Origin: Candidatus Latescibacterota bacterium
GTDB taxonomy: Bacteria > Latescibacterota > UBA2968
DNA length: 64,000 nucleotides
Direction of reading: 5' to 3'
Assembly (NCBI GenBank): GCA_965208125.1
Contig: OZ242320.1
Span: forward strand, 3,862,482 to 3,926,481
Part shown: piece after piece, positions 12,674 through 48,511 of the stretch
How the letters are laid out: each line of letters starts with the position of its first letter
Position numbering within the stretch: the stretch's first letter is position 1
The notes under the pieces: model-generated
The model's input: only the letters and a program-made list of their open reading frames with translations
Told to the model about the DNA's origin: nothing
The model's database searches: none
Translations under genes and position numbers: made by a program

Positions 12674-12688
12674 TCAAGGAGCTTTGCT

Positions 12689-13678
12689 ATGATGACCAGG
12701 ATATACGCATCAATCTGCGTATTCGCGATTGTGATTTTGCTGCAATCGCCCGCCCAGGGACAGGGATATGTGGAAATCGAGGATGAGGATATTTATTCCT
12801 CAACCGCTGCTTCGCGAATTGGGCTTACAGGATTTGCATTTCTGAAGATTTCCCAGGGGGCGCGGTCTGCGGGAATGGGGGATGCGTACACGGCCATATC
12901 CAATGATATCAATGCGGCATTCAAGAATCCTGCCGGTTTGACCCATATGAAACGGATTGAGTACGTGTTCTCTTACAACCGATGGTTGGTAAACAGCACG
13001 GTTGCTTCCAGCGCTGTTGCGGCGAATACGCCTTATGGCGTGGTGGGCGTTACTTTTATCGGTTTCTACCCTGAGAAGAGCAAGGAAACCACCATACTCC
13101 AGCCGCTCGGAACAGGAGAGATGGTGAATGCTGGGGATGTCGCCATCGGATTTCTTTACGCGAAGAAAATGACCGATAGGCTCTCCTTCGGCGCTCACGG
13201 TCGCTGGATTCAGGAAACGCTGCACGACAAGAAAATTTCCAGTTACGATGTCTCACTCGGCACGCTGTTCTACACGGGATTTGGCTCCAGCAGGTTGGCG
13301 ATGACATTACAAAATTTCGGCAAAGACGTAACGCCGGAAGCGGTCACTTTCGCCATGCCAATGGTTTTCAATATCGCCGCTGCTATGGAGGTTTACGGAA
13401 CAGTAGAAGATCCCACCTACCTCACAGCCGCAGTCGATTTCAGCTATGCCACTGATTTCGGTGAGCGGTTACATTTTGGCGGTGAGCTCTGGGTCGCAAG
13501 GGTGCTCGCGCTTCGAGCTGGATACAAGACCAATTACGACATCGAGAGTTATTCACTTGGTGCCGGTGTTCGCGTGAACTATGTGGGAGGTAGGCAGGTC
13601 TCTGTCGATTTTGCCTATTCGGCGATTGAGGGTGGCTTTGATCCTCCGCTGCGCGTATCTCTGAGTGGGAGTTTTTAG
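12689..13678 (+). CDS. PorV/PorQ-family (FadL-like) outer-membrane barrel
   Basis: 329 aa with a signal peptide. The family-typical N-terminal motif GARSAGMGDAYTAISNDINAAFKNPAGL is present, and the barrel ends …VSLSGSF. Confidence 0.7.
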   Translation: MMTRIYASICVFAIVILLQSPAQGQGYVEIEDEDIYSSTAASRIGLTGFAFLKISQGARSAGMGDAYTAISNDINAAFKNPAGLTHMKRIEYVFSYNRWLVNSTVASSAVAANTPYGVVGVTFIGFYPEKSKETTILQPLGTGEMVNAGDVAIGFLYAKKMTDRLSFGAHGRWIQETLHDKKISSYDVSLGTLFYTGFGSSRLAMTLQNFGKDVTPEAVTFAMPMVFNIAAAMEVYGTVEDPTYLTAAVDFSYATDFGERLHFGGELWVARVLALRAGYKTNYDIESYSLGAGVRVNYVGGRQVSVDFAYSAIEGGFDPPLRVSLSGSF

Positions 13679-18616: not shown

Positions 18617-18687
18617 ATGGTGAATCCAAAATTAAGTGTGATCACGTGTCCCAAACATTAGAAACTCCACGCGACCGTCAAGATCAG

Positions 18688-25424: not shown

Positions 25425-25454
25425 TCATCCACCCGGTTCTGGAGGAACATAAGA

Positions 25455-29542: not shown

Positions 29543-30844
29543 ATGGAAACTCGATTGCAGGCCGGATTTGCACGAACGGATATTACCCCAGATCTGGGAT
29601 GTCTGCTGCTGGGCTACCCGGCCCCAGACCGCAGAGCCGAATCCGTACGCGACCGACTCAACGCGAATGCGCTCTACCTGGAACAAAATAGCGTGAGAGC
29701 CGTCATCTTGAGCCTTGATGTGTGCATTGTAGATGATGTCGAAGTCGAGTCTATTCGCCAGGGAATCTATGATCGAACAGGCATCCCTTCGGATCATATC
29801 ACTGTCTGTGCTATCCAGACTCACAGTGGACCCTGCACCATTGATTGCTGGGGATGGAGCGAAAAGGACAAACCGTATATCGATAGGCTCGTCGAGAGAA
29901 GCATTGAAGCCGCCGTCACCGCTGCTCAATCACCCATACCTATAACTGTAGGCATCGGCACAACGCAGAGTGACGTGGGGGTCAACCGACGAGAGGTCCT
30001 TGAAAACCACGAAGTTGCCCTGGGTGTCAATCCCTGGGGGCCTTATGATCCCGATATGACCCTTTTGCGATTTGAAGGGAAGGATGGGCCACTTGTCTCA
30101 TTGATCCACTACGGCGCGCATCCAACCGTTTTCTCCAGTGCCAACAGGGCAGTGTCCCGCGATTGGCCAGGTGTCATGATCGACCGGGTGGAACACCTCA
30201 CGGGCGTCCCGACTTTCTTTGTCAATGGTGCCGTAGGTGACATCGCTCCCCGCACCAATAGTCTCCGCGCCGTCGGAGATGGCGAAATGGCGCTCATGGA
30301 AGTCGGAGGGCGAGCGGGTATGGATGCGATGCGTGCTTACCGGTCCATCAAGACGTTCCAAGACCTGCCGTTGTCCATCATTACCGGAGACATCATGATG
30401 CCTTACCGGTCGCTGCCGCCACTGGAAGAAGCAGAGCGGGAGTTTGCCTTGACTAAATCCGAAAAAGATGAGCCAGGGAAGGGCATGTGCGAGTACAAAC
30501 ACTGGGAAGCCGTTATCCATGCCCACAAAACCGAACCGTTACCTGGCACAACTTACCGGCAGGTGATCACTGCTCTCGGGCCGATTGCATTTGTCCCTTT
30601 TCCCGGCGAGCCATTCGCAGAAATCGTTCTTCGATTGCGCCAGTACAGTCCCTTTCAATATACGCTTTGCGCCAGTACTTCGTGTGGCAGCTATGGCTAT
30701 TTCGTCACGCGGGATTCGCTGCACCGCGGTGGGTACGAAGTCTGGGTGGCCAAAGCCTTCGGCGCGTACATTCTGGCTGAAAATATCGACGACGTCCTGG
30801 TCGAAGAAAATCTGGCTCTCCTGCACAATCTGCACGACCTGTAG
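29543..30844 (+). CDS. ceramidase-N-domain-like Zn amidohydrolase, paralog P2
   Basis: 433 aa. ARTDITPDLGCLLLGY, IQTHSGP, HYGAHPT and GAVGDIAP. Same subfamily as P1. Confidence 0.65.
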   Translation: METRLQAGFARTDITPDLGCLLLGYPAPDRRAESVRDRLNANALYLEQNSVRAVILSLDVCIVDDVEVESIRQGIYDRTGIPSDHITVCAIQTHSGPCTIDCWGWSEKDKPYIDRLVERSIEAAVTAAQSPIPITVGIGTTQSDVGVNRREVLENHEVALGVNPWGPYDPDMTLLRFEGKDGPLVSLIHYGAHPTVFSSANRAVSRDWPGVMIDRVEHLTGVPTFFVNGAVGDIAPRTNSLRAVGDGEMALMEVGGRAGMDAMRAYRSIKTFQDLPLSIITGDIMMPYRSLPPLEEAEREFALTKSEKDEPGKGMCEYKHWEAVIHAHKTEPLPGTTYRQVITALGPIAFVPFPGEPFAEIVLRLRQYSPFQYTLCASTSCGSYGYFVTRDSLHRGGYEVWVAKAFGAYILAENIDDVLVEENLALLHNLHDL

Positions 30845-30922: not shown

Positions 30923-32479
30923 TCAACCCCTGCGTTCGGCGGCTGAGCCAAAGCCGCCGCCGCCGGCCTCGCGCATCGAAATCCGATCACCGGGTGACAG
31001 CTCGACACGCGATTTGGGGTCGACCAGTTGACCATTGACTTCGTACCGGCGAAGTGCCCCGTCGTCGCCGCCTTGTAGCCCCTTGGCTGCAAATTCGGTT
31101 CGCTGACCCATTAGGGCTATCTCGAGGAGATGGCCGGTGTCATTGCGAAAGACCACTTCCTGGCCGTCGCCGCCGCGCCACTTCCCGTCGCCGCCTGTGT
31201 CGGGTAGGATCTCACGCTTTTCGATGGTGATGGACGTGCGGTTTTCCCAGACCTCCGTGGGGACCACAGTCATGTTGGACGGCGCCGGTGTGACGGCGCG
31301 GCCATCCTGCCCCAGCATGGCACCGAGGCCGCCGGCGAGAAAGAAGAGTGAGGAGATTTCCTCGCCGTCACGGTGACGTCCCTGGACGCTGAAGACATTC
31401 ATCATGGCGGCGTCGGCCTGGACACGGTCCGGCAGGGCCGGCGCCATGGCACCCATCACGAGCGGGACAACGAAGTGACCCACCGAATGTCGCCCACCGG
31501 TCGCCCACGGCGGTTGTGCATTGAGGATGCAATGATCGGGTGCCGAGATATCGATCGGCCGTGCCGCGCCGGCATTGTTCGGCAGATTGGGGATCGTCAG
31601 ACACTTGATCACGTAGTTGGCCTGGGCGCGGGTGTAACAGAACGGCACGTTAATTGAGGCCCGCACAGGGCCTTCAGTGCCGGTGAAATCTATGGCGACA
31701 TGACTGCCGTTTACTCTGACGTTGGCGGCCAGTTGAATTGGCCGGCCCGGCCCCTCAATTGCAATGGCATTGGCATAAGAGCCGTCAGGGATCTCGGCGA
31801 TGCGTTCGCACATTGCGGCCTCGGCGTGATCGTTGATGGCGTCGGAGAGTGTTTCGATCTCATCGAGACCGTACTCGTCCATGAACTCCAGCAAGGCCCG
31901 CCCGCCGACTTCGTTACAAGCGATGTTCGCCATCAAATCGCCAACCGTCTGTTCCGGAACGCGGACGTTGGTGCGAACGATATCGAGGAGGAGTTCATTT
32001 AGCTGCCCACCGTCGCTTAGCTTGCACACGGGAAGGCGCAGGCCCTCGTGGTACACCTCCGTGCAGTCAGACGCCATGCCTTTGCCGCCGATATCCGGCA
32101 GATGCGTGACACTCATGGTGAACCCTGTCAGGCGATCGCCACGAAATACCGGACGCATGACATTGATGTCGAATAAGTGACCGGTGCCCATCCATGGATC
32201 GTTGGTGGCGATGACATCGCCGGGTTTCAACGTGTTGGCCGGAAACGCACGCAGCATGTGAGCGATGGTCTGTGGTGCCGTTCCGGTGAAGGACGGCACC
32301 GAGTAGCTGCCCTGCGCCACGAGGTGTGCCCTGGCGTCAAAGATCATACATGACAGGTCGTAGCCCTCTCGAACATTCATGGAGAACGATGTGCGGACGA
32401 GCGACAGGACGAGTTCGTCGGCAATCGAGACCAGGCGGTCCCATAAGATCTTGAGACTGACGGGATCGTACTGGGTCAT
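30923..32479 (-). CDS. hydantoinase B-family subunit (HyuB-2)
   Basis: 518 aa. DPVSLKILWDRL…, NDPWMGTGHLFDI, THLPDIGG and GGGGFG. The start overlaps the HyuA-2 stop (ATGA). Confidence 0.85.
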   Translation of the reverse strand: MTQYDPVSLKILWDRLVSIADELVLSLVRTSFSMNVREGYDLSCMIFDARAHLVAQGSYSVPSFTGTAPQTIAHMLRAFPANTLKPGDVIATNDPWMGTGHLFDINVMRPVFRGDRLTGFTMSVTHLPDIGGKGMASDCTEVYHEGLRLPVCKLSDGGQLNELLLDIVRTNVRVPEQTVGDLMANIACNEVGGRALLEFMDEYGLDEIETLSDAINDHAEAAMCERIAEIPDGSYANAIAIEGPGRPIQLAANVRVNGSHVAIDFTGTEGPVRASINVPFCYTRAQANYVIKCLTIPNLPNNAGAARPIDISAPDHCILNAQPPWATGGRHSVGHFVVPLVMGAMAPALPDRVQADAAMMNVFSVQGRHRDGEEISSLFFLAGGLGAMLGQDGRAVTPAPSNMTVVPTEVWENRTSITIEKREILPDTGGDGKWRGGDGQEVVFRNDTGHLLEIALMGQRTEFAAKGLQGGDDGALRRYEVNGQLVDPKSRVELSPGDRISMREAGGGGFGSAAERRG

Positions 32480-34560
32480 GACGTCTCTCCGGCCAATGTC
32501 GCAATCAAGTTGCCCATGTCATCAACTTCGATCGTGTCGCCAACGCTCAGGACGGTTGTTGCCTCATTCTCCTGGACGAGGGCAGGACCCGTTATGTGCT
32601 GCCCCTGGTCCAGGGCGTAACGATCGTAGATAGGACAATTGGCAAGTCCCGTTGCGTCGTCGCAGAAGATGCTGGCCTCACCAACCTGGTCTTGTGAGGT
32701 CAGAGCGCCGCTGAATGGGCGATAGCGATCTGCGAATTCCGGCTCAGGTCCGCTCGCCTCCACTTTCCAATTGACGATCTCAATTCCGGTATCGATTGGC
32801 GTGGCGGCAAAAATCTTGGCATAGGTTTCGCAAAAGAGATCGGCAATGCCATTGCGGTCAATGCCCGGCGGAAGCGGCACTTCAACCTCGTGGCCCTGGC
32901 CGCAATACCGCATGTCAAGCCGCCTGTCAATTTGAATCTGCGCGTCGTCAATGCCGGCCTCTGCAAGGAGGCAACGTGCCTGGCGTTCAACCAGATTGAA
33001 TCCGGCGTCGAGGCCATCTGCATCCAATTCTTCGAGATTGACCCGCCCAGAGCGCAAGGTTGCATAGGAGATCGGAGTCATCAAGAGTCCAATCGCCGAC
33101 ATCACGCCAGCACCGACGGGGAAAACCACCTTTGGGATTCGCAGCTTTCGAGCAATACGAATAGCGTGTGCCGGACCGGATCCGCCAAACGCGATCATTG
33201 TGCAGCGGCGGTAGTCGAAGCCGATTTCCGCAGCATGGGTGCGGAATGCCCGCGCGACGTCCTCGTTGATGACCTCATGAACACCCCAGGCAGCTCGGAT
33301 CGTGTCGACCCGAAGTGGTTCGGCGACATTCCGGTCAATTGCATGATGTGCGGCTTCGCTGTCCAGGATCATATTCCGACCAAGAAATGCCTCTGGAACC
33401 AGATAGCCGAGGGTCAGGTTGGCATCCGTCAACGTTGCGTTGTCGCCGCCCTGGCTATAACAGGCTGGTCCGGGCTCAGCGCCGGCGCTCTTGGGTCCAA
33501 CGGCCAAAAGATTGCGTTCGTCGACATTGGCGATTGACCCACCACCGGCACCGATCTCAATCATGTCGATCACTGGGATACGGAGTGGGAGACCGCTGCC
33601 TTGCTTGAAGTCATGCTCTCGCGCCACTTCGAACTCGTAGCGGCGCAGGGGGCGGCCATTGCGGATTAGGGCGCCCTTTGCCGTCGTCCCGCCCATGTCA
33701 AATGCCAGTAGATTGGGTTCGCCAATTCGCTGTCCCAAATTGGCCGCCATGAGGGCACCGGCGGCCGGCCCCGACTCGATAAGCCGCACCGGATAGCGCC
33801 GCGCGATTTCAGGCGTGACCATGCCGCCAGATGATGTCATCACCAGAAAACGACCATCAAATCCCATGGTGGACAGTCCGGTCTCCAGGCGTTCGAGATA
33901 GCGATCGGTCAGCGGGCGCACATACGCGTTGATCGTGGTTGTCGACCAGCGTTCATATTCCCGCATGAAGGGCAGTACGTCGGACGAGGTGCTAACATGC
34001 AGGTCGGGAAATGCCTTCGCGACAGTATCTCGGGCCTGGTTTTCGTGATCCGGATTGGCATAGGCATGCAAGAAACAGATGGCCAGAGCCTCTATCCCAT
34101 GCGCAGAAACCAGGTGTGCGACGGCCGCCTGGACCTCTTTTTTATTCAAGGGTGTCTCAACCTGCCCATCAAATAGGATGCGTTCCGAAAGCTCGGCTCG
34201 CAGATCCCGTGGGACGACTGGCTCTGCAAAACCCAGTCGCAGGTCGAACAAATCGTAGCGACGCTCCATGGCGATATCCAGGACATCGCGGAAACCCCTG
34301 GTGACCAACATGCCAGTCGTCGCGCCGCGGCGTTCGATGACGGCATTCGTGACGAGCGTCGTGCCGTGTGACAGGACGGTGACGTCGGAGATATCGACGC
34401 CGGTTCGGCTGAGTAGTGCTGCAATTCCGGTCAGAACGCTGAGCGATGGATCGGACGGTGTGGTCAATTGCTTGTGTGTTGAGAGTTCGCCGGAGTCGTT
34501 ATCGACCAGTGCGAAATCGGTAAAGGTGCCGCCGATATCGACGCCAAGCCTATGGGCCAT
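32476..34560 (-). CDS. hydantoinase A-family subunit (HyuA-2)
   Basis: MAHRLGVDIGGTFTD, GTTLVTNAVIE, AFDMGGTTAK and EIGAGGGSIA. I prefer the ATG at 34560 (GGAG upstream) over the listed 34572. Confidence 0.85.
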   Translation of the reverse strand: MAHRLGVDIGGTFTDFALVDNDSGELSTHKQLTTPSDPSLSVLTGIAALLSRTGVDISDVTVLSHGTTLVTNAVIERRGATTGMLVTRGFRDVLDIAMERRYDLFDLRLGFAEPVVPRDLRAELSERILFDGQVETPLNKKEVQAAVAHLVSAHGIEALAICFLHAYANPDHENQARDTVAKAFPDLHVSTSSDVLPFMREYERWSTTTINAYVRPLTDRYLERLETGLSTMGFDGRFLVMTSSGGMVTPEIARRYPVRLIESGPAAGALMAANLGQRIGEPNLLAFDMGGTTAKGALIRNGRPLRRYEFEVAREHDFKQGSGLPLRIPVIDMIEIGAGGGSIANVDERNLLAVGPKSAGAEPGPACYSQGGDNATLTDANLTLGYLVPEAFLGRNMILDSEAAHHAIDRNVAEPLRVDTIRAAWGVHEVINEDVARAFRTHAAEIGFDYRRCTMIAFGGSGPAHAIRIARKLRIPKVVFPVGAGVMSAIGLLMTPISYATLRSGRVNLEELDADGLDAGFNLVERQARCLLAEAGIDDAQIQIDRRLDMRYCGQGHEVEVPLPPGIDRNGIADLFCETYAKIFAATPIDTGIEIVNWKVEASGPEPEFADRYRPFSGALTSQDQVGEASIFCDDATGLANCPIYDRYALDQGQHITGPALVQENEATTVLSVGDTIEVDDMGNLIATLAGETS

Positions 34561-35626
34561 GGGATGCTCCACTGAGAACTGAGTGAAACGCCTTCAGTGT
34601 GATCTCAACGGCGTTCTCAGTGATTTCGTGATGGGTCACAAGACGCACGTCATCGCCGAACGGCAAAACCAGCACGCCCTCACGTTCAAGCGCGGCGGCA
34701 AGGGTTTCGGGGCGCATTGTGTTTGGACGTGCGAGCACGATGTTCGACTCCACCTGGGACTTGTCAATACTAAGCGTTGGCTGGGAAGACAGATCATTTG
34801 CCAGTTGTCGCGCAGTGGTGTGATCTATGTGCAGTCGTTCGATCATCGTCTCGATCGCAACGATACCTGCCGCGGCAACAATGCCGGCCGGTCGCCAACC
34901 GCCGCCGAACATTTGTCTGATGCGCATCGCCTCGGCGATGAACCCATCGGGTCCGGCAAGGATCGCGCCGAGTGGCGCACCAAGTCCTTTGTTGAGATTG
35001 AAGGAAACGGTATCGCATGTCATGGCGATGTCACGCGCCGGGATTCCTGAGGCGACGGCTGCATTGAAGATCCGCGCGCCGTCAAGGTGCACCGGTACCT
35101 CCTGACTGCTGGCGATGTCGTAAATAGCTGTCATGTGTGCCGTGGGCACGACACGACCTCCAGAACGCACGTGCGTGTTTTCCTGGGCGACTGCGGCGGG
35201 GCGCGGGTGCTGTGCATCGCTGTGTCGGAGGGAATCACGCAAAGCGTCGAGGTCAAGCGCACCGGCCTGGGCCGGGATCATCTTCGGCATGGCACCGGAC
35301 AGCGCGGCGGTGGCGGCCGACTCCGACGTCACAACGTGGGCGTCAGCTTCCGTTACGAACAACTCACCGGGCCTGCAATGAATATGTAGCGCAATTTGGT
35401 TGGCCATCGTGCAAGTCGGCACAAAAAGAGCGTCGTCCTTTCCGATGACCTCCGCCGCGCGATTTTCGAGGTCGGCAACGATCGTGTCTTCGCGCAGCCC
35501 GAAGCCGCAGGGTTGCCTCGCAGCACGCAGCATCGCTTCAACCATGGCCGGAGTTGGTCGGGCAACAAAGTCCGATCTGAGATCGACTATCTGAGCTGCA
35601 CCGCCGTCAGTAATGTTCTGGCACAT
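34550..35626 (-). CDS. threonine-aldolase-family PLP enzyme (Beta_elim_lyase fold)
   Basis: 358 aa. DLRSD..ARPT, TCTMANQIAL, ENTHVRSGGRV, HLDGARIFNA, SFNLNKGLGAP (PLP Lys) and GGGWRPAG are collinear with low-specificity L-threonine aldolases. Confidence 0.75.
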   Translation of the reverse strand: MCQNITDGGAAQIVDLRSDFVARPTPAMVEAMLRAARQPCGFGLREDTIVADLENRAAEVIGKDDALFVPTCTMANQIALHIHCRPGELFVTEADAHVVTSESAATAALSGAMPKMIPAQAGALDLDALRDSLRHSDAQHPRPAAVAQENTHVRSGGRVVPTAHMTAIYDIASSQEVPVHLDGARIFNAAVASGIPARDIAMTCDTVSFNLNKGLGAPLGAILAGPDGFIAEAMRIRQMFGGGWRPAGIVAAAGIVAIETMIERLHIDHTTARQLANDLSSQPTLSIDKSQVESNIVLARPNTMRPETLAAALEREGVLVLPFGDDVRLVTHHEITENAVEITLKAFHSVLSGASHGP

Positions 35627-35784: not shown

Positions 35785-37404
35785 TTACCCTGCAAGGTCT
35801 TCTTTATCCAGCCACTGTCGCAACTCAGTTTTCAGGATCTTTCCGTAGTTGTTTTTGGGCAAACTATCCACAAAGAAATAGGCCCTGGGGCGCTTGAAGC
35901 GAGCGATATGATCGAGACAGAGCACATCCAGCTCGTCCTCCATCTTTTCACTGGCATCCTCCGCTACAACAAAAGCAACAACCTCCTCCCCCCATTCTGG
36001 ATGTGGCCGGCCGATCACCGATACCTCCTGGACGGCTCCATGCATCAGCAGGACCTCCTCCACCTCCCGGGGATAGATGTTGGAGCCCCCACTGATAATG
36101 AGATCCTTTGAGCGATCCTTCAACGTCAAAAACCCGTCCTCGTCGAACGTACCCATGTCGCCCGTATGCAGCCAGCCGTTTCGCATGGTCGTTTCGGTTG
36201 CTTCCGGATTTTCCCAGTATCCACACATGACAACATCACCCCTGACAATCACTTCGCCTATTTCGCCAGGAGGGAGCACCCGGTCATTCGAATCGACCAC
36301 CCTGACTTCGACCACCGACTGAGGGATCCCCGCCGATTGAAGCCGTTCTTCAAACCGAGCATGATCTTTCTCGGCATGCAGCCCTTTCGACAACGCCGTA
36401 ATCGTCATCGGGCTTTCGCCTAAACCGTAGATCTGAACCAGCTTGTTGCCAAATAGATTTATGGCCTGCTTCAGATCGGCTACATACATCGGCGCACCGC
36501 CGTACACGATCGTTTTTAAGTTTGACGTATTAGCGCTGCGGCTGGTGGGATGATCGACCAGTCGTTTCACCATTGTCGGCGCTGCGAAAATCGTCATCCC
36601 TTCGTGGGAGACAATCAGGTCGAAAACTTCATCAGGATTGAACCGGCCACTCGCCGGGATGACCTGTTTTGCCGCAACAGCGACGTGGGAGAGGTTGTAC
36701 AGACCCGAGCCGTGGGAGAGGGGAGCTGCATGCAGGATGCAATCTTCTGATGAGACCGCATCGACATCGACAAAGTAATTCAGCGTCAACGCCATCAAGT
36801 TGCGATGACTCAACACAGCTCCCTTGGGGCGACCCGTCGTACCACTCGTGTAGAATATCCAGGCGGGATCGTCGGACGAACGTTCTGCCATCCGAACCGA
36901 TTTGCCCTGTCGCAGGGATTTGTAATCGGATGAGGATACACAGCCCACATACTCGAGCGAAGGTATCAGATCGCGAAGCGAATCAATCGTCTCAAGCAAG
37001 TCAGCGGTGACAAAACAGCAGCGGGCGCCTGAGTTCTCGAGGATATACTGAAACTCACGCGCATGCAGCCTGGCGTTGATCGGGACTGTACACAGCCCGG
37101 CATGCCAGGCAGCGTACATCACTTCGAGGAATTCCGCACAGTTCTGCATGGCGAGTGCGACGCGGTCCCCGGGTTTGAGATGGAGTTGATCGAGGAATCG
37201 ACCTGCCATGGTCGATACGCGACTGTAGAGGTCTCCGTAGGAGCAGTACGCATTCTTACCAATTGCGATCGCGGGCTTTTCGCTGAAAGCGGTCCCCGCT
37301 CTAGCCACCAGATGAGCGACATTCAATGGCAAATCCTCCTCGGGACCGTCGTGTAAAGACCCAATCGGGGTCCGGCATGCCCCCGCGCAATCATAAACCC
37401 GCAC
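35785..37404 (-). CDS. AMP-dependent synthetase/ligase (acyl/aryl-CoA ligase family)
   Basis: 539 aa. YTSGTTGRPKG (A3 core), YGLGE, TGDMG and ISGGSNIYPREVE are the ANL adenylate-forming signatures. Confidence 0.85.
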   Translation of the reverse strand: MRVYDCAGACRTPIGSLHDGPEEDLPLNVAHLVARAGTAFSEKPAIAIGKNAYCSYGDLYSRVSTMAGRFLDQLHLKPGDRVALAMQNCAEFLEVMYAAWHAGLCTVPINARLHAREFQYILENSGARCCFVTADLLETIDSLRDLIPSLEYVGCVSSSDYKSLRQGKSVRMAERSSDDPAWIFYTSGTTGRPKGAVLSHRNLMALTLNYFVDVDAVSSEDCILHAAPLSHGSGLYNLSHVAVAAKQVIPASGRFNPDEVFDLIVSHEGMTIFAAPTMVKRLVDHPTSRSANTSNLKTIVYGGAPMYVADLKQAINLFGNKLVQIYGLGESPMTITALSKGLHAEKDHARFEERLQSAGIPQSVVEVRVVDSNDRVLPPGEIGEVIVRGDVVMCGYWENPEATETTMRNGWLHTGDMGTFDEDGFLTLKDRSKDLIISGGSNIYPREVEEVLLMHGAVQEVSVIGRPHPEWGEEVVAFVVAEDASEKMEDELDVLCLDHIARFKRPRAYFFVDSLPKNNYGKILKTELRQWLDKEDLAG

Positions 37405-37410: not shown

Positions 37411-38832
37411 TTAGGTCCCAATCTCGTCCAGCAACCTCACCGCCTCCTCCACGATCTTCTCCAGACACCCCGGCTCCACCTTCGCCCACTTCGCCGGCTT
37501 GTTACGAATCTCATGCCCGCCCCGCGGGTAACTGTGACGCGGGGCGATGTAGCCGGCGAAGTCGGTTGTGTTGTGGGCGACGAAAGTATAGGGGAAGGGC
37601 GACCGGACTTTGATCTCCAGTTGGCCTTCGACGAAGGGCTCGCCGGGGAGTCCGACGAGGGCGATGTCGCCGATGCGCAGGACTTGAATCTCATAGGCGA
37701 GCTCTGGGGAGCGCTCGCGCTCGCGCTCCACGCTCATCAGCATGGCCGCATCCATCCAATCGGCGTTCACGCGGCGAGGCGTACTATCTTCATCCCAGCG
37801 CGGCTCGGGGTGCTCGGCGAGGAGCTTCTCGGCGGCTGCGCGGTCGGCGGAATCGGCCTTCTTCAAGGGGAGCGGGACGAGCTTCACTCGTGCGTCCAGC
37901 GTGGCCTCTTCTTCGAAGGTGAGTGCACTGAGGATGTGCCGTGAGGTCTCGGCCAGCGCGCGCCCCATGCGCCGGTGGTCCGGGACGAAATCGGCGTGGA
38001 ATGCGGGCCACGGGTTTATGTTGCCGCAGCAACCGTTGAGCACCAGGGGAACGCACGTTTCACCGCATTCCTCCTGCATCCCGGCGCACCAAACGCCCGG
38101 CCAGTCCGGCGAGACGGTGTAGTGCTGCGTGGCGAACACATTGACCGGATGGCACGTGAAGTGAAGGAGCATAGCGCTCATCTTCATTTTCTCATTGCGC
38201 AGACACACCATCCCCACCTCGGGGTCCGTCGGACCTTCGAGGAAGGCGATGTCCGTGGGGCCCAGCGGCCTGGACGCCCTGGAGAACTGTCCCGGCATCA
38301 CTATGCCCCCGTCGCGAGTTACTCCCCTCCGGTTAAAGGCCAGATCATCACGGACCGCCCGGCCAGCGCCGAGTTGGACCGGATGCAAGGCTTTGTCCGC
38401 GGCTTCAACGCACGAAAGGATTTTGCCGACGGCGTACTCGCAGTACTCAGATTGGGAGCCGCGGAGGTACTCTAGTTCAGGCGGAATGTTGGGCAGCGCC
38501 TCGTCGATGACAAAGTTGCCGAGGGGCGGCGTGGAATGGGATTGCGGAAGATGTACCATGATGTCGTCGGGCGCGATTCCACAGCGGCGCTCAATGCCCT
38601 GGCGAATCTTCTGCGTCCACGGAAGCGTGGCGATTTCCAGGTCTGGTTGGACGATACAGAGTTTCCGTGTGCGGGATTCCAGCACGAGAGCCCGGGTGTA
38701 TAGCGGTTCCGCCACCGTGCGCGCATCGCGTAACACGCCCCACGTGCCGCCCAAGTGTGTGCCTGCGTTCGGCGTTATGTCAATCAGCGCACCGCCGGCC
38801 CGGAGGACATTGGGTCGGTCGGATGTAGTCAT
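37411..38832 (-). CDS. ceramidase-N-domain-like Zn amidohydrolase, paralog P3
   Basis: 473 aa. ALIDITPNAGTHLGG, PQSHSTPP, LLHFTCHPVNVFA and NGCCGNINPWPAF. Close paralog of P4. Confidence 0.6.
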   Translation of the reverse strand: MTTSDRPNVLRAGGALIDITPNAGTHLGGTWGVLRDARTVAEPLYTRALVLESRTRKLCIVQPDLEIATLPWTQKIRQGIERRCGIAPDDIMVHLPQSHSTPPLGNFVIDEALPNIPPELEYLRGSQSEYCEYAVGKILSCVEAADKALHPVQLGAGRAVRDDLAFNRRGVTRDGGIVMPGQFSRASRPLGPTDIAFLEGPTDPEVGMVCLRNEKMKMSAMLLHFTCHPVNVFATQHYTVSPDWPGVWCAGMQEECGETCVPLVLNGCCGNINPWPAFHADFVPDHRRMGRALAETSRHILSALTFEEEATLDARVKLVPLPLKKADSADRAAAEKLLAEHPEPRWDEDSTPRRVNADWMDAAMLMSVERERERSPELAYEIQVLRIGDIALVGLPGEPFVEGQLEIKVRSPFPYTFVAHNTTDFAGYIAPRHSYPRGGHEIRNKPAKWAKVEPGCLEKIVEEAVRLLDEIGT

Positions 38833-38947: not shown

Positions 38948-41896
38948 CTACTGACCGGACAACGCAAGGTTGCCCACTATCTTCCGGAATCGGTTTGCTG
39001 CCTCCTGTATGGTCTTTTCGGTACCGCCGAACATGAGCCTCACATGGTCTCCGGACCCGTACGGTCCGCCGGGCTCGACAGCGACGCCGTATTCTGAAAG
39101 CAGCGCTTCGGCAAATTCCGCGCTGGGAAGGCCGAGTCCGCGTATGTTCAGAAATAGAAATGGCGCTCCTGCCGGGACGGCAAAGGAAATCCCCGGTGCC
39201 CGGTCCATGCCCTCTATCATCAGGTCACGGTACTGCTGGTACCGCCTGGCAATCTCGTGCACCCAGTCCTGCGGTCCCTCCAATGCCGCCTGCGCTGCCC
39301 GCTGGGCGATATGGCTGCAGGTGAGCACATTCCACTCAAGCACCTTCCGGCAAGCAGCTATCAGGTCCGGGGGCCCGACAATATACCCCAACCGCCACGG
39401 CTGCATCGCATAGCTCTTGGTAAAACTACACAATGTCAGTAGCCGGTCCCGGATCTCTGGAATGGAGGCCGCCCTCAAGTGCTTTCGCCCGTCATAGACC
39501 ATCTTGTCGTAGCACTCGTCAGAGAGAATCAAGAGATTGTGCCTGAGGGCCAGCTCCGCGGCCGCCTCGAGATCTCTCTTTGACGCCACATATCCTGTCG
39601 GATTTCCGGGCGAATTCAGGATTACCATGCGGGTCCTTGACGAACAGGCCGCTTCCAGGGCCTCGAGGTCCCAGCGCCAGTTCTGTTCCTGGTGAGTCGG
39701 CACGCAGGCCGCGACGGCGCCGGCGAGGTGAAGCGGGCCGCCAAATTGAAATCCCGGACTGAACATCAGAACCTCATCGCCCGGCGCGAGCAGCGCCAGA
39801 AACGCGATGCTCATGGCATGCATGGCGCCGTGCGTGATCAGGATCTCCGTATCCGAGTCCGGTCGGATCCCGTCATCGGTTTCCCATCTTGCCGCGATGG
39901 CTTTCCGAAGTTCGGGGAAGCCGTTGGAAGGAGCCATTGCATTCTCGCCTATGGCCTGTTCGGCGGCGGCCAGGACATGTTCCGGCGGCGGCCAGGCGGG
40001 CGAACCCTTGAGCGACAGGACTTCGCTTCCCACGACATGGAACGAGGCGACGCGGTCCGCCATTTCCTTCGAGCTGACCCTGCCGGCCAGGGCCGCCCGA
40101 CTCGGTATCCTGGAAAGGTCTTCTGCAGAGAGATCCGCCGATGCCCTATTTTCATGTTCGCCTGCTGCCAGCATCCTCTGCCGGGTCGTGGCTGTTGCCT
40201 CTTCATCCATACTCAGTGTTAGGGGGTCGATCACCACACCATAAACTTCCCTGGCCTGCTCGAGGCTGACCTTATCATTCCGTACATCTTCCAGGACCAT
40301 TTGAGGATTCCGTTCCACAGGCGTGCCCCAGCCGCCGCCGCCTGCCTGAAGATGGCGCAGGATCTCTCCTTTCCTTAACACGATCGCTTCGCTTGGAAGC
40401 ACAGGAAGAAGTGATTGGTTCGGACCGGAATAGAGAGTATTGCAGGTTGGAGACCCGGAAAGGCCGCCCTGTAGCCCGTACGGCCGATGCGCCCGTCGGT
40501 CCGATCGCATGCTCAAAACGGCTTCCTCCGCGAGGATCCTGTATTCTCTCATGAGCGCCAACCCGCCCCGGTATTTTCCCGGTCCGCCGGAATCCATGAC
40601 CAGGCCGTACTGCAATATCTCAATGGGGTGACGTGCTTCGATGAGTTCGACGGGCTGGTTAGATTGATTGGCGCCGGGATTGGGAACGCCTTCGGCGCCG
40701 TCGCGATCCGGCCGACCTCCTGAACAGCCGAGAACGGATTCTGTAAAGACAAATGGCTCGCCCTCGTGATAACCGCCAATCGAGGGAAACGTTGCGCCGC
40801 CCTCCCCTGCCGCTGGCACACGGTCCGGAACGGCCCCGGCCAGCGCGCCCAGAAGGGTGTCCAGCATCCGAAAGCCCGTAATCCCGCGGGTTGAGCAGGC
40901 GGCAGGCAGGACGGGGTTCATAATCGTACCCTCCGGTGCGAGAACCCGGATGGGCCGCATATAACCCTCATTGTTGGGGATATCACGCCCTCCCAGACAT
41001 CGGAAAGCAAGGTAGGATGCTGAGAGAGTCATCGGGAAGGGCGCATTAATGCCGCCTTTCACCTGCGGCGCGCTCCCGCTCCAGTCCACGACTGCCTCCT
41101 CGCCGGCAATCGTGATGGTCACCTGAAACCGGATCGGTTCCGGTTCGCTGCCCAGACCGTCGATGAAATCCGTGAACTCATAGCTGCCGTCTGGGATGGC
41201 CTGAATCTCTTCCCGCATCATGCGTTCGGCGAGTTCGAGAAGTTGGTTGAGATAATGCCCCAGCGAATCCGATCCATATTTTTCCAGAAGCTGCATATAG
41301 GCCTGTTCAGCCTGGCGGCAGGCAGCGAGCTGGGCGCGCATATCGCCCGCGACTTCCACAGGTACCCTGACATTTTTTTCAATAAATTTGAATACCGTAT
41401 CATTGGGTGTTCCCCGGTCGTAAAGTTTGACGAGTGGAATGCGGAGACCTTCCTGGTAAATCTCGGTGGAGAACGACGTATTGCTCCCGGGTGCGATCCC
41501 GCCAACGTCTGCATGGTGGACAAGGGCAACCGCAAAGCCCTCCAGTACGCCAGCAAAAAATATGGGCAGGGTGAGATAGATATCCGGCAGATGCATGCCG
41601 CCGGCACCGTAAGGGTCATTGGTAATAAACACGTCGTCCGCATGTATTCTGCCTTCATATGCCCGGGTGAGTTCTGCGATGGCCACGGGAAACGAGCCGA
41701 GATGCAGCGCGGTCGTGAGACCCTGGGCGATCATTCTGCCTTTTGCGTCAAACAGCGCGGTGGAATAGTCCATGGAATCTCGCACCACTGATGAATAGGC
41801 ACTGCGCATCAGCACAAGCGCCATTGTATCAGCGATCATTTCCAGGGCGTTGCGAATGACTTCAAGAGTTACAGGGTCTGTCTTGTTCATGTCCAC
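38948..41896 (-). CDS. fusion protein: hydantoinase B-family domain (HyuB-3, aa ~1-570) + class I/II aminotransferase domain (aa ~612-982)
   Basis: A single uninterrupted 982-aa ORF. N-terminal part: DPVTLEVIRNAL, NDPYGAGGMHLPDI, HHADVGG, GGGGWG. C-terminal part (nt ~38951-40063): ILNSPGNPTG, SFTKSYAMQPWRLGY (PLP Lys) and a GD…RL tail. Confidence 0.85.
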   Translation of the reverse strand: MDMNKTDPVTLEVIRNALEMIADTMALVLMRSAYSSVVRDSMDYSTALFDAKGRMIAQGLTTALHLGSFPVAIAELTRAYEGRIHADDVFITNDPYGAGGMHLPDIYLTLPIFFAGVLEGFAVALVHHADVGGIAPGSNTSFSTEIYQEGLRIPLVKLYDRGTPNDTVFKFIEKNVRVPVEVAGDMRAQLAACRQAEQAYMQLLEKYGSDSLGHYLNQLLELAERMMREEIQAIPDGSYEFTDFIDGLGSEPEPIRFQVTITIAGEEAVVDWSGSAPQVKGGINAPFPMTLSASYLAFRCLGGRDIPNNEGYMRPIRVLAPEGTIMNPVLPAACSTRGITGFRMLDTLLGALAGAVPDRVPAAGEGGATFPSIGGYHEGEPFVFTESVLGCSGGRPDRDGAEGVPNPGANQSNQPVELIEARHPIEILQYGLVMDSGGPGKYRGGLALMREYRILAEEAVLSMRSDRRAHRPYGLQGGLSGSPTCNTLYSGPNQSLLPVLPSEAIVLRKGEILRHLQAGGGGWGTPVERNPQMVLEDVRNDKVSLEQAREVYGVVIDPLTLSMDEEATATTRQRMLAAGEHENRASADLSAEDLSRIPSRAALAGRVSSKEMADRVASFHVVGSEVLSLKGSPAWPPPEHVLAAAEQAIGENAMAPSNGFPELRKAIAARWETDDGIRPDSDTEILITHGAMHAMSIAFLALLAPGDEVLMFSPGFQFGGPLHLAGAVAACVPTHQEQNWRWDLEALEAACSSRTRMVILNSPGNPTGYVASKRDLEAAAELALRHNLLILSDECYDKMVYDGRKHLRAASIPEIRDRLLTLCSFTKSYAMQPWRLGYIVGPPDLIAACRKVLEWNVLTCSHIAQRAAQAALEGPQDWVHEIARRYQQYRDLMIEGMDRAPGISFAVPAGAPFLFLNIRGLGLPSAEFAEALLSEYGVAVEPGGPYGSGDHVRLMFGGTEKTIQEAANRFRKIVGNLALSGQ

Positions 41897-41911
41897 TCTC
41901 TCACACCGTGG

Positions 41912-44020
41912 TCAGGCATGTCGAAGAATGATGTTCTGGAAGCCGTCCAAAGATGCCTGCCAACCTGGCGGCACGACGGTGGTTGAGTCCAATTCTTCGA
42001 TGATCAAAGGTCCTCCAGTGGGCGCAGCGCAGAGGGATTGCCGTGAACAAACCACGGTTTTCAGGTCATCGCCGTCCGGCCCGAAAAAGGTTCTTCTGCA
42101 GCCGTTTTTTACGACGTTCTCTTCCCGGTGATCCGCACGGAACAGGTCCCGGGGCTCATCCGCTCCGAACTCTCGAATGACGCTCGAGACAATCCTGAGG
42201 TTGACCAGTTCGATGGGGTCATGGTTTGCCCGGTGGCCGTAGGTCGTGAGGTGCTCCTGCTCGAATGCCTCCGCCAATGTCGTTAGTTCCCCGGGTCCAA
42301 GCGGAACGCCGGGTGCAGGCACGGTCAGCTCGGTGGTCTGGTTGACATAGCGCAAATCGGCAAGCCGCCGTACTCGAATCTGTTCGGGGCGATATCCTTC
42401 GGCAACGAGCGTCTCCACCGCCTGCGACTCGAGTTCGGTATAGAGCCGGTTCAAGTCTTCGGGCCTGACCTCTTCCAGTCTGCGACACCAGGTTCGGACG
42501 GATTCATGCTCGGGTTCGGACACAAGCAGCCCGAAGGCACTGAACAGGCCGGGATGCGGCGGAATAATCACCTCTCGCATGCCCAGAGCCTGTGCAAGGG
42601 TTGTGGCTACGAGGGGCCCGCACCCTCCGAACGCCAACAGGGCGGCCTCACGCGGATCTCTTCCGCGATACGTAGAAACGGACTTCACGGCCCGAATCAT
42701 GGTCGCACAGGCCAGTGTAAAAGCCCCAAAGGCGGCCTTCATCAGACATTGTTGCATCGGTCTGGCCACTTTCTCCTCGAATATCCTCCTCGCTTGATCT
42801 GTCTCCAGTTTCATCTTCCCGCAAAGCAGAGCATCGGGACTGAGATAGCCGAGAAGGACGGCGGCGTCCGTGAAGGTCGGCTCATCGCCTCCAAGCCCGT
42901 AGCAGACGGGCCCGGGGTCAGCGCCGGCACTTTCCGGCCCGACCCGGAGCCGGCCGTGCCGGTCAACCGAAACGATACTCCCGCCGCCGGCTCCGATCTC
43001 CGCGATATCGATGACAGGCAGCTTGAGCGCATATCCTGCGCCTTTGACCAGGCGGCTGCTCAGGTTGATACCGGCACCGACTTCATATTCGGAAGTCCGG
43101 GCAACGGTTCCGTTCTCAACTATGGCGGTCTTGGCGGTTGTGCCGCCCATGTCCAGGGTAATCACGTTTGTGTAGCCTGCTTTGCCGGCCATCCAGGCTG
43201 CGGCCATCACCCCGGCCGCGGGTCCGGATTCAATCAGGTGGGCGGGCTTCTTCTGCGCCGAGTCGGCTGTCATCACTCCGCCCCCTGAATGCAGAACCTC
43301 CAGCGGCGCACGAATGCCCATTGACTGGAGTTGTTCGCTCAGGGAATTCAGATATCGCTGCACGACCGGCCCGAGGTAGGCATTAATCACTGTCGTGCTC
43401 GTACGCTCATATTCGCGGATTTCAGGAAGGACCTCGCAGGAGGCGGTGACAAATACATCGGGAAGCGACTCCCGGGCCGCGGCGACCGCCCGGAGTTCGT
43501 GCTCCGGGTTGGCATAGGAATGGAGCAGACAGATCGCCAGTGCTTCGATCTCCTGCTGCTGCACGGTGTTCAGGACATTTTCCAGGGACACCTGCTGGAG
43601 AGGTTCCCGCACCCCGCCGCGAGAGTCCATTCGTTCATCCAATTCGAATCGCAGGCGGCGTGGAACAAGAGGACTGGGCGGGCTGTAAAAAAGGTTGTAA
43701 AGCTCGGGGATCCGAATTCGTCGCATCTCGAGAACGTCTCGGAATCCTTTTGTCGTGATCAGGGCAGTCCGGGCTCCCTTGCCTTCCAGGATCGCATTTG
43801 TGGCAACAGTCGTGGCATGTGCGATTCTCTCAATGGAAACCTCTGAAATCCGGCGATCTTCAATCAATTCGCGAAGCCCCTGAATGATACCCCGGGCGTA
43901 GTCCTCCGGCGTGGAAAGGACCTTCCGGACAGCGAGCGAACCGTCACTGCCCAAGACAGCAATGTCGGTAAATGTTCCGCCGATATCGATGCCGATATGA
44001 GATGATGGCGGTGATATCAT
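41912..44020 (-). CDS. hydantoinase A-family subunit (HyuA-3)
   Basis: 702 aa. HIGIDIGGTFTD, ATTVATNAILE, TLDMGGTTAK and EIGAGGGSIV, with CAGGAGG upstream. Confidence 0.85.
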   Translation of the reverse strand: MISPPSSHIGIDIGGTFTDIAVLGSDGSLAVRKVLSTPEDYARGIIQGLRELIEDRRISEVSIERIAHATTVATNAILEGKGARTALITTKGFRDVLEMRRIRIPELYNLFYSPPSPLVPRRLRFELDERMDSRGGVREPLQQVSLENVLNTVQQQEIEALAICLLHSYANPEHELRAVAAARESLPDVFVTASCEVLPEIREYERTSTTVINAYLGPVVQRYLNSLSEQLQSMGIRAPLEVLHSGGGVMTADSAQKKPAHLIESGPAAGVMAAAWMAGKAGYTNVITLDMGGTTAKTAIVENGTVARTSEYEVGAGINLSSRLVKGAGYALKLPVIDIAEIGAGGGSIVSVDRHGRLRVGPESAGADPGPVCYGLGGDEPTFTDAAVLLGYLSPDALLCGKMKLETDQARRIFEEKVARPMQQCLMKAAFGAFTLACATMIRAVKSVSTYRGRDPREAALLAFGGCGPLVATTLAQALGMREVIIPPHPGLFSAFGLLVSEPEHESVRTWCRRLEEVRPEDLNRLYTELESQAVETLVAEGYRPEQIRVRRLADLRYVNQTTELTVPAPGVPLGPGELTTLAEAFEQEHLTTYGHRANHDPIELVNLRIVSSVIREFGADEPRDLFRADHREENVVKNGCRRTFFGPDGDDLKTVVCSRQSLCAAPTGGPLIIEELDSTTVVPPGWQASLDGFQNIILRHA

Positions 44021-47113: not shown

Positions 47114-48511
47114 TCAGTCATTTTCGAATAATTCCGTCAGTATTGCCACCGTCGCTTCGACGATGCGCTCCAACGAGTCCGGCGCAAACTTGGCCCAGTA
47201 GGTGCAGTTGGCGTTGGTTTCGTGCCCTGGTCTTGCGCAGGCGTCGCTCGTGGGGAGGTAGCCGACGTATTGCGTGGACATGTGAGCGATGAAGGTGAGC
47301 TTCGCAGGCGACCTGGTCTTAATCTCCAATTGACCTTCCACGAACGGCTCGCCGGGCAGAGAAATGATAGCCATGTCGCCGATGCGGAAGACCTGGATTT
47401 CATACATGAATTGCGGCTCACGATTTCGGCAAAGCTCGATGCTTTTCGTCGATGCGGCATGAAACCATGTGGGATCTACTTCGCCGTTGTCTTGTAGTTT
47501 CAGCGTTGGGTGTTCGGCCAGAATGCGGTTGACCTGGTCTTGCCGATCGTTGGGAATATCGCGATACGCCAGAGGGATTTTTTTGAAACGCCAATCGATC
47601 GAATCAACGTCTGCAAAGCTCAGCGATTCGATGACGGCCTGTGTGGTGTCCGCCAATTCATTCCCCATGCGCACGTGGTCGGGCGTGAAGTTGGGGGTAA
47701 AGGCAGGCCATGGATTGACGTTGCCACAACATCCGTTGATGACCATGGGCGGGCAAGTCAGACTGTTCAGGTCTTTGACTTTTGCGCTCCACGCGCCGGG
47801 CCAGTCGGCGCAGACGGTATTTTTTTCCCGAGCAAACACGTTGACCGGATGACAGGTAAAGTGCAGCAGCATCGCGGCCACATCACCCGCGGCCGATTGC
47901 GCGCACCACACACCCACCTGTGGGTCGGCAGGGCCTTCCATGTAAACGATGTCTGTCGGCCCCAGGGGTTTGGCGTCACTGGTGAAGGGCCACGGCATGC
48001 AGATATTGCCGCCGCGCATCACGCCACGCCGATTAAAGGCCAGGTCGTCGCGAACGGCATGCCCCATGGCGACCTGCACTGGCGTTAACGCATCGTTCGC
48101 TTCCCGGATCGCGCGGGTCGCGCCGGCGACGGCCTGCTTCGTATAAGCGGCTTCACTACCGGTGATGTGCTCCTGATTAGCTCTCAGGTCAAGCGGGAAA
48201 TCCGGGTCGAGCATGAGGGCGCCGCAACTCGGTGCCGAGTGATTCTGCAACGAATGCACCATCACGGCGTGGGGTTCAAAGCCCAGCGCGACAGCGCTTT
48301 CTCGAATGGCCCGGGTGTAGGGCAAAGTAACCGCCAACGTGTCTAACGTGATGATACACAATTTCGCGTCTTTGGCCTGGGCGACCATCACTTTGGCGTA
48401 AAGTGGATCGAGGATTTTTCGAGCAGGGCGGTGTTCTCCCATGCCGCTTCCGGCCAGGTGCGTGCCCAAAGGCGGTGTGATGCCGACGGCGGCTTGGCCT
48501 ATTTGAAGCAT
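47114..48511 (-). CDS. ceramidase-N-domain-like Zn amidohydrolase, paralog P4
   Basis: 465 aa. AAVGITPPLGTHLAG, LQNHSAPS, LLHFTCHPVNVFA and NGCCGNVNPWPAF. Confidence 0.6.
   Translation of the reverse strand: MLQIGQAAVGITPPLGTHLAGSGMGEHRPARKILDPLYAKVMVAQAKDAKLCIITLDTLAVTLPYTRAIRESAVALGFEPHAVMVHSLQNHSAPSCGALMLDPDFPLDLRANQEHITGSEAAYTKQAVAGATRAIREANDALTPVQVAMGHAVRDDLAFNRRGVMRGGNICMPWPFTSDAKPLGPTDIVYMEGPADPQVGVWCAQSAAGDVAAMLLHFTCHPVNVFAREKNTVCADWPGAWSAKVKDLNSLTCPPMVINGCCGNVNPWPAFTPNFTPDHVRMGNELADTTQAVIESLSFADVDSIDWRFKKIPLAYRDIPNDRQDQVNRILAEHPTLKLQDNGEVDPTWFHAASTKSIELCRNREPQFMYEIQVFRIGDMAIISLPGEPFVEGQLEIKTRSPAKLTFIAHMSTQYVGYLPTSDACARPGHETNANCTYWAKFAPDSLERIVEATVAILTELFEND

Follow-up and report, generated by a model that had tools for sequence, protein, structure and literature searches.

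We analyzed a 64,000-nucleotide stretch of contig OZ242320.1 (assembly GCA_965208125.1) from a Candidatus Latescibacterota bacterium, hereafter the window, in which a single open reading frame (ORF) on the minus strand (38948..41896) joins a HyuB-type subunit of the hydantoinase/oxoprolinase family to a class-I aminotransferase (AT). The fusion is a genuine gene as judged from its recurrence across assemblies, it appears to descend from the adjacent hyuB and AT genes of a three-gene hyuA-hyuB-AT cassette, and a fusion of this kind has probably formed twice. With modest confidence, we lean towards reading the fusion and the HyuA encoded beside it as a two-polypeptide, three-activity catabolic enzyme, in which a carboxy-lactam would be opened by HyuA and the HyuB domain and the resulting alpha-amino acid would then be transaminated by the fused AT.

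Counted from a GTG, the ORF is 982 codons long and uninterrupted by stops. The likelier start is an ATG at 41890, two codons past the GTG and with GAGAGAG upstream, which yields a protein of 980 aa and agrees with the database protein P0001. In Pfam searches, Hydantoinase_B (PF02538) covers residues 7-526 and the entire profile (1-519 of 519) at an E value of 1.7e-168, with 561.8 bits against a gathering threshold of 26.8, and Aminotran_1_2 (PF00155) covers residues 637-970 (E 3.2e-57, 194.8 bits against 19.7). The motif NSPGNPTG and the pyridoxal phosphate (PLP) lysine motif SFTKSYAMQPWRLGY are both found in the ORF, and the 3' end of hyuA, whose product matches three Pfam domains of the Hydantoinase_A type, lies 15 nt before the GTG. 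These results bear out an earlier note on this DNA, made from the sequence alone, which had described an uninterrupted 982-aa ORF, with its strand unstated, as a complete HyuB joined to a complete fold-type-I AT with both motifs and with HyuA 15 nt upstream. Its linker of about 40 aa was too long: in alignments, free-standing HyuB orthologues stop opposite residue ~581 and free-standing ATs start opposite residues ~590-597, leaving about 10-17 aa between the domains. The AlphaFold2 model of the fusion, built on alignment A4, has two folded halves separated by residues 580-606 with a predicted local distance difference test score (pLDDT) below 50, consistent with a flexible linker; the model is only moderate (overall pLDDT 71, predicted template modeling score 0.48) and carries no information on the relative arrangement of the domains.

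A fusion found by inspection of a single sequence might be a sequencing or assembly error, or a decaying gene that makes no bifunctional protein. Most relatives are unfused, and where stop and start codons overlap, one indel could imitate a fusion. Against this, P0001, which is 99% identical to the window fusion, stands for 91 sequences clustered at 90% identity that come from Logan, ENA, JGI and NCBI. A scan of GTDB species genomes also recovered the locus, 97-99% identical, from four genomes labelled 'Candidatus Latescibacterota', and three of these are closed chromosomes of 6.2-6.3 Mb. The ORF is intact and the in-frame junction has the same length in these four genomes and one Logan contig (L002 and L008-L011), making six assemblies with the window, which speaks against the frameshift-made false fusion for which the earlier note had proposed a check. 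In Nei-Gojobori comparisons of the five assemblies with the window, dN/dS lies between 0.14 and 0.33 in the HyuB half and between 0.19 and 0.40 in the AT half, which points to purifying selection on both, and all catalytic residues are retained. A second group of three fusions (P0002, P0135 and P0136; 992 aa) shows 57% identity across 98% of the length, has the same architecture and is encoded directly after a hyuA. An artifact is ruled out as far as sequence data permit; we regard this explanation as effectively refuted already, with a negligible chance of being right.

How common such fusions are is a separate matter. A whole-protein search of 1.84 billion cluster representatives gave no two-domain match in the top 150; since that collection does not contain even the fusion of the window in fused form, this is weak evidence of rarity and no census. 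Neither P0001 nor P0002 was returned when the AT half or a junction fragment served as the query, and these searches therefore say nothing about further fusions. The opposite kind of artifact can also be seen, in that a HyuB gene near an orthologous AT on ERZ25039469:contig_21747 (L056, 1-1470) is called as four short genes, which looks like frameshift errors of a noisy assembly. Taxon labels in the P0001 cluster are discordant: NCBI assigns proteins at least 90% identical to the fusion to metagenome-assembled genomes (MAGs) labelled Caldilineaceae, Gemmatimonadota and 'Candidatus ...', in contrast to the Latescibacterota label of the closed genomes. The likelier cause is mis-binning or mislabelling of the MAGs, and the less likely one recent transfer.

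The unfused relatives point to the origin of the fusion. The best free-standing HyuB matches (60-69% identity, ~580 aa) and AT matches (51-59%, ~390-400 aa) share contigs, on which hyuA, hyuB and AT stand in the gene order of the window, the difference being that hyuB and AT are separate genes there and one ORF in the window. The genes of these uncharacterized cassettes are spaced by ~20-95 nt or overlap by 4 nt, their HyuA proteins are 52-60% identical to that of the window, and their carriers are a Thermodesulfobacteriota MAG (CAYXRH010000007.1), a Vicinamibacterales MAG (CBDAOD010000003.1), two JGI metagenomes and one Logan contig. As the free-standing HyuBs end, and the free-standing ATs begin, close to either side of the junction, two complete neighboring genes seem to have been joined end to start. 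The segment that joins them comprises ~10-17 residues in Latescibacterota and ~25 nonhomologous residues in the P0002 clade, whose closest relative is an unfused cassette with a 4-nt overlap between the end of hyuB and the beginning of AT. In neighbor-joining trees of either domain, none of 200 bootstraps unites the two fusion clades, and the nearest relatives of each clade are unfused. The parsimonious reading is that the fusion probably arose twice, independently.

Linkage of this kind does not seem to be a general habit of class-I ATs. HyuA or HyuB was found in the flanks of none of 80 metagenomic loci with generic class-I ATs of 32-39% identity (50 loci of at least 8 kb), a control set reused from a metagenome scan with the AT alignment that such generic ATs had swamped. 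The proposal of the earlier note that the fusion couples ring opening to transamination gains support from the occurrence of the unfused cassette in several phyla, the probable double fusion and this control. The evidence supports a functional link between the two halves, with transamination most likely following ring opening.

The catalytic equipment of HyuA and of the HyuB half appears complete. The ATP motifs of the ASKHA fold, DIGGTFTD, DMGGT and GADPGP (as defined in PMC8453981), are all found in HyuA. In the HyuB half, D43, H102, D105 and H127 align with D41, H99, D102 and H124, the essential metal ligands of CapB, the beta subunit of the lactamase CapAB (PMC8453981), and are invariant in both fusion clades. 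Among solved structures, an N-methylhydantoinase (NMHase; 7hk5/9h03) is nearest to the HyuB half, with 313 bits and a Foldseek E value of 4e-37, and CapB itself (6yra_B) scores 240 bits at 34% identity. CapA and CapB are also the top NCBIfam models for HyuA and the HyuB half, yet at 537.5 and 311.6 bits (the latter for NF050157) both lie below the equivalog cut-off of 1000.

The substrate pocket differs from that of CapB in character. CapB residues L38, I60, Y136, C411, L415 and F468 correspond to D40, T62, N139, N406, N410 and R464 of the fusion, and the vicinal disulfide Cys410-Cys411 of CapB is missing, with C410 falling in an alignment gap. Six positions form a signature (R39, D40, N410, R464, R467 and R468) kept in 91-95 of 95 clade members; within its arginine cluster, R464 is present in all 95, R467 in 91 and R468 in 93. 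CapB, NMHase and the two other HyuB paralogues of the window differ at most of the six positions and lack the R464/R467/R468 cluster, and the remaining pocket positions vary inside the clade. Such a pattern would fit substrates that share a polar or anionic head group and differ in a substituent. No fewer than 95 sequences of at least 55% identity share the signature. Two members of the clade have other architectures: P0026 (745 aa) combines PF01243, PF12900 and Hydantoinase_B in one protein, and P0016 is a 1328-aa HyuA-HyuB fusion of 63% identity.

The AT half resembles aspartate aminotransferases (AspATs) of subgroup I-beta and their aromatic and prephenate relatives. Its PDB matches include the Pyrococcus horikoshii aspartate/aromatic AT (1gd9/1dju, 210 bits) and the Phormidium and Thermus AspATs (193-203 bits; T. 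thermophilus 193), and Foldseek gives target-normalized TM-scores of 0.86-0.92 to AspAT and prephenate ATs. With these proteins (1gd9/1dju, 1bkg and the Arabidopsis thaliana prephenate AT, 5wmh/6f5v) it shares the fold, the PLP residues and the alpha-carboxylate Arg, and it differs from them in identity (~30%), in Met692-His693 in place of the Lys-Gln of I-beta AspATs, and in being fused to HyuB. When the domain is aligned with 1gd9 and 1bkg, the residues with established roles in AspATs are matched by K827 (the PLP Lys), D793 (the Asp at the pyridine nitrogen), N765 and Y796 (both at O3'), R835 (for the phosphate) and R953 (for the alpha-carboxylate), none of which varies in either fusion clade. 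Pfam finds no Aminotran_3 (PF00202) match in the AT half at E <= 0.001. Membership in Aminotran_1_2 together with R953 argues that the domain should act on an alpha-amino acid. The nature of the side chain is less clear, as the distal-carboxylate Lys that marks acidic substrates in subgroup I-beta, presumably Lys109 of the T. thermophilus enzyme, is Met692 in the fusion: GGKQ of 1bkg and 1j32 aligns with GAMH, and Met-His is kept in the whole orthogroup. The orthogroup has motifs of its own, namely the W in G-x-P-x-W-x-P-P, WRWD, LEWN and PQDW.

Another identity for the AT half was considered and rejected. The top NCBIfam model is the cyclodehydratase GntC (NF041364), with 279 bits against a cut-off of 415, and AspAT-like structures score higher than PDB 8fft (75.7 bits), which we take to be GntC. 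A threonine-aldolase-like PLP enzyme in the window (34550-35626, minus strand), the 3' end of which overlaps the start of a second hyuA by 23 nt, does pass the NCBIfam model for the GntG family PLP-dependent aldolase (318 against 230 bits). This GntG-family aldolase and the subthreshold GntC model belong to the same guanitoxin pathway, which may be a coincidence.

What stands next to related hyuAB genes bears directly on the product of ring opening. Plasmids of cultured bacteria carry HyuB homologues of 45-55% identity with the same core signature. In Paraburkholderia and Bosea an alanine racemase gene follows hyuB, and in Marinibacterium a DAO-family oxidoreductase and then RidA take that place (neighbor families checked in Pfam). 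A Pseudosulfitobacter cluster comprises DAO, LysR, hyuAB, a TRAP (DctP) transporter and RidA, a Sinorhizobium fredii cluster has RidA and a polar-amino-acid ABC system, and related alphaproteobacterial and Gaiellaceae clusters have a more distant class-I AT. The racemase and DAO families act on the alpha-amino group of amino acids, and RidA acts on the resulting imine. An AT, a racemase and an amino-acid dehydrogenase with an imine deaminase could replace one another after hyuB only if HyuAB yields an alpha-amino acid. TRAP and amino-acid transporters take carboxylated ligands as an established property of their families, and their presence nearby argues for a carboxylated substrate. The AT-linked cassettes themselves often adjoin Dpp/Opp-type ABC importers and LysR or PucR-type regulators, and some adjoin S15 peptidases.

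Under the scheme that we prefer, HyuA, which binds ATP, and the HyuB domain, which holds the metal site, would form an ATP-dependent cyclic-amide hydrolase, and opening of the lactam would turn the ring nitrogen into the alpha-amino group of the product. The fused AT would then move the amino group of the released L-alpha-amino acid to a 2-oxo acid and release a 2-oxo product. The substrate, brought in by peptide- or amino-acid-type transporters, would most likely be a polar, carboxylate-bearing lactam, either 5-oxoproline or a ring-substituted or ring-expanded analogue of it, and the simplest instance would be conversion of 5-oxoproline to glutamate and on to 2-oxoglutarate. Between these options, the missing Lys for an acidic side chain, the dedicated AT and the occasional coenzyme A (CoA) ligase or molybdenum hydroxylase suggest a substituted or ring-expanded 5-oxoproline analogue. 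Class-I ATs are homodimers. In the CapABBA tetramer, the core is a CapB dimer (PMC8453981). By analogy, an assembly of the form (HyuA)2(HyuB-AT)2 would be geometrically plausible. Hydrolysis of such lactams is endergonic and driven by ATP (PMC8453981), and placing a consuming enzyme on the same polypeptide would make sense for such a ring opening; the intermediate might even be channelled between the HyuB and AT domains.

Several points weigh against this scheme. The HyuAB clade and the AT orthogroup are without any characterized member, and the scores stay below the cut-offs of the curated equivalog models. The closest solved HyuB relative is an N-methylhydantoinase and no oxoprolinase, and the pocket mapping relies on a CapB structure at 4.0 Å and on a sequence alignment at 34% identity. 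With Met692 in place of the acidic-side-chain Lys, glutamate is not specifically supported as the intermediate, and a dedicated glutamate AT would be largely redundant with housekeeping enzymes. Finally, neither of two occasional companions of the cassette, an AMP-binding ligase seen in two lineages and a molybdenum hydroxylase seen in a single one, fits plain 5-oxoproline; these partners hint at a different or substituted substrate. The hydroxylase, consisting of a MoCoBD and an FAD subunit, is encoded directly upstream of hyuA in Vicinamibacterales (L050, 4564-7834).

Other substrates, and another order of the two reactions, have to be weighed against the preferred scheme. An oxoproline-type lactam releases an alpha-amino acid on opening and an omega-lactam does not. 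This distinction matters for the claim of the earlier note that the fusion points to a lactam or cyclic amine rather than oxoproline, in which case a caprolactam- or valerolactam-type lactam or a cyclic amine would give an omega-amino acid and the fused AT would take its terminal amine. The precedent is the caprolactam pathway of Pseudomonas jessenii, in which CapAB, an ATP-dependent HyuA/HyuB-type lactamase with the same metal ligands and ATP motifs, acts before an aminotransferase (PMC8453981, PMC6061476), and it is CapA and CapB that give the best NCBIfam models here, although with scores far under the equivalog cut-off. However, the aminotransferase of that pathway, PjAT, is a separate protein and a subgroup-II/class-III omega-aminotransferase acting on 6-aminohexanoate (PMC6061476), whereas the fused AT is a class-I enzyme with the alpha-carboxylate Arg. 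Polar or charged residues take the place of CapB's hydrophobic pocket and its vicinal Cys-Cys pair, and the racemase or DAO/RidA neighbors of the homologues indicate an alpha-amino acid. AT class, pocket and comparative context thus contradict the earlier claim, and we hold an omega-lactam to be very unlikely. A 5-substituted hydantoin or a dihydropyrimidine-like ureide has somewhat more in its favor. HyuAB would open it to an N-carbamoyl amino acid, from which a separately encoded carbamoylase would free the amino acid for deamination by the fused AT. This would suit the NMHase as nearest solved HyuB relative, the Amidohydro_1 or Amidohydro_3 gene that follows hyuB in more distant clusters (L023 and L025), the uncharacterized amidase-like ORF after the fusion in the window, and the isochorismatase-family and creatininase-family genes a few kb away in Bosea (L139). 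A carbamoylase-type gene is not conserved, however: L003, L005 and L054 lack one, and CN_hydrolase occurs only in L007, 2.5 kb away. Moreover, the enzyme that is consistently adjacent needs a free alpha-amino group, which the N-carbamoyl product does not offer, and NMHase has neither the RSDRR arginines of the clade nor the H127 ligand. We consider the hydantoin route improbable.

The order of the reactions could also be the reverse, with the AT transaminating glutamine or a comparable amide amino acid, the 2-oxo-amide product cyclizing spontaneously to 2-hydroxy-5-oxoproline, and HyuAB with ATP converting this to 2-oxoglutarate and ammonia. Glutamine transaminases, which are class-I ATs (T. 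thermophilus 1v2d and KAT I), are among the matches of the AT half, the HyuB pocket is polar and has arginines, polar-amino-acid transporters adjoin related clusters, and a fusion would prevent the build-up of a dead-end lactam. The glutamine ATs score only 133-146 bits, though, compared with 193-210 bits for the AspAT/aromatic ATs, and in homologous clusters the AT slot is filled by a racemase or by DAO and RidA, which are unable to make 2-hydroxy-5-oxoproline. We know of no precedent for a glutaminase-II-like cycle of this kind with HyuAB and would expect it least of the schemes weighed here. Cyclic dipeptides (diketopiperazines) come to mind from the Dpp-type transporters and S15 peptidases near the cassettes; they are not favored, as both the conserved Arg cluster and the presence of TRAP and amino-acid transporters point to a substrate with negative charge.

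Carboxy-lactam opening followed by transamination, the reading that we prefer, can be taken one step further. The proteins might form an obligate (HyuA)2(HyuB-AT)2 'lactam deaminase', in which the thermodynamically uphill ring opening of an unrecognized carboxy-lactam would be pulled by immediate, possibly channelled, transamination. Candidate substrates would be substituted or D/L-pyroglutamate, 6-oxopipecolate or similar compounds, perhaps derived from a host. We think this rather unlikely, and the reverse-order, glutaminase-II-like cycle would be an even bolder variant of it. If true, the HyuAB clade with its AT, racemase or DAO/RidA partners would be a widespread, unstudied family of amino-acid-lactam catabolic modules.

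Among known systems, the ATP-dependent eukaryotic 5-oxoprolinase (OPLAH/OXP1, ~1290 aa) belongs to the same superfamily and converts a carboxy-lactam to an alpha-amino acid, glutamate, which would fit a class-I AT as the next enzyme; unlike the window protein, its HyuB is fused to HyuA and not to an aminotransferase. HyuA-HyuB fusions of 1269-1324 aa are 40-47% identical to the HyuB half, and some are called 5-oxoprolinase, by automatic annotation alone. NMHase (1288 aa) is likewise an A-B fusion without AT, 33% identical to the HyuB half in the Foldseek alignment and with Q at the position of H127. The HyuA/HyuB-like AgaF/AgaG of octopine-type Ti plasmids, encoded beside an SBP_bac_5-type ABC importer, have been proposed to open the lactam of agropinic acid, an N-substituted 5-oxoproline. 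That route differs from the one proposed for the fusion, as its product mannopinic acid is a secondary amine that is oxidized, not transaminated, and no AT is involved. Our literature search on agropinic acid found nothing relevant.

The earlier note was unaware of any description of this fusion, and for the literature that we searched this holds: neither a Hydantoinase_B-aminotransferase fusion nor a hyuA-hyuB-AT cassette is described there, and searches on HyuAB in sponge symbionts or Latescibacterota and on fitness data found nothing relevant. The proteins themselves are already in NCBI, where they are named only 'aminotransferase class I/II-fold PLP-dependent enzyme', so the present analysis corrects the public annotation of 980-aa proteins as mere aminotransferases. 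Both fused domains belong to well-known families, and adjacent pathway genes commonly fuse in evolution; the main value of the fusion is as a functional clue to a large uncharacterized HyuAB clade. HyuA and HyuB genes are abundant and their known substrates are few: N-methylhydantoin, 5-substituted hydantoins, 5-oxoproline, capro- and valerolactam, oxindole-acetate, acetone and acetophenone. Like a Rosetta stone, the fusion, when taken with the racemase and DAO/RidA variants, suggests that a large HyuAB clade delivers an alpha-amino acid, which would narrow the search for substrates to carboxy-lactams. Cultured hosts for work on the clade are at hand in Bosea, Paraburkholderia, Marinibacterium and the plasmids of Sinorhizobium. 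A naturally fused enzyme is also well suited to asking whether ATP-driven opening of the ring and the step after it are kinetically coupled, and the biocatalytic interest of mild lactam hydrolysis and deamination in one protein is real, if secondary. The features of the locus are collected in the following table.

Table 1. Features of the fusion gene and its surroundings, in window coordinates
Feature	Coordinates	Strand	Basis
HyuB (beta subunit) domain, residues 1-580, including small C-terminal alpha/beta subdomain	40157..41896	-	Pfam, PDB matches, metal ligands
RSDRR loop (R464, R467, R468), clade-specific Arg cluster	40493..40507	-	Conservation among 95 clade members
Interdomain linker, residues 581-597, HENRASADLSAEDLSRI	40106..40156	-	Alignment to free-standing HyuBs and ATs; low pLDDT
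Class-I AT domain, residues 598-982 and stop	38948..40105	-	Pfam PF00155, PDB/Foldseek matches
PLP Schiff-base lysine codon, K827 (SFTK)	39416..39418	-	Alignment to AT structures; invariant in alignments A1 and A3
R953 codon, equivalent of the alpha-carboxylate-binding Arg of class-I ATs	39038..39040	-	Alignment; invariant in A1 and A3
hyuA, ATP-binding (ASKHA) alpha subunit, partner of the fusion, 702 aa	41912..44020	-	Pfam Hydant_A_N, Hydantoinase_A, Hydant_A_C; ATP motifs
473-aa ORF with weak neutral-ceramidase-like similarity, directly downstream of the fusion	37411..38832	-	Pfam; kept after the fusion in L002
AMP-binding acyl-CoA-synthetase-like gene, possible accessory	35785..37404	-	Pfam; two genes downstream of the fusion
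Ceramidase-like ORFs	15780-17129 (+), 29543-30844 (+), 37411-38832 (-), 47114-48511 (-)		PF04734

The acyl-CoA-synthetase-like gene of the window is 45% identical to the AMP-binding ligase (11749-13299) that lies between hyuB and AT in Ca. Moanabacter (L013, Verrucomicrobiota). The module may include this ligase as an optional fourth component; its membership is uncertain because it is missing from the other cassettes. The ORF between it and the fusion has no NCBIfam match and no sequence relative in the PDB, and it is one of four ORFs of 433-473 aa in the window whose sequences align with the N-terminal portion of neutral/alkaline ceramidase (PF04734), two of them just above the gathering threshold and two below; they may represent an uncharacterized amidase family expanded in this Latescibacterota genome. 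A scan of 30.5-49 kb for promoters and terminators gave no more sites than shuffled sequence.

Three HyuA/HyuB pairs are encoded within 21 kb of the window, at 23694-27542 (plus strand), 30923-34572 (minus strand) and 38948-44020 (minus strand), the last including the fusion. The other two HyuBs are 34-36% identical to the HyuB half of the fusion and are without its Arg signature, and these pairs probably have different substrates. One of them is in B-A order and adjoins an M81 MlrC-like peptidase and an S15 peptidase. Further away, a DUF6785+DUF6784 protein (13779-15767, plus strand) is followed by a ceramidase-like ORF and a sulfatase, and a second one (18541-20634, plus strand) by DUF3604 and an M81 peptidase. 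Upstream of these genes lie a TonB-receptor-like gene (7347-10400), a 752-aa ORF without a Pfam match, a FadL-like outer membrane protein gene and a sigma-54 activator gene (4065-5828), and the region with the DUF6785+DUF6784 genes looks like a large substrate-utilization island.

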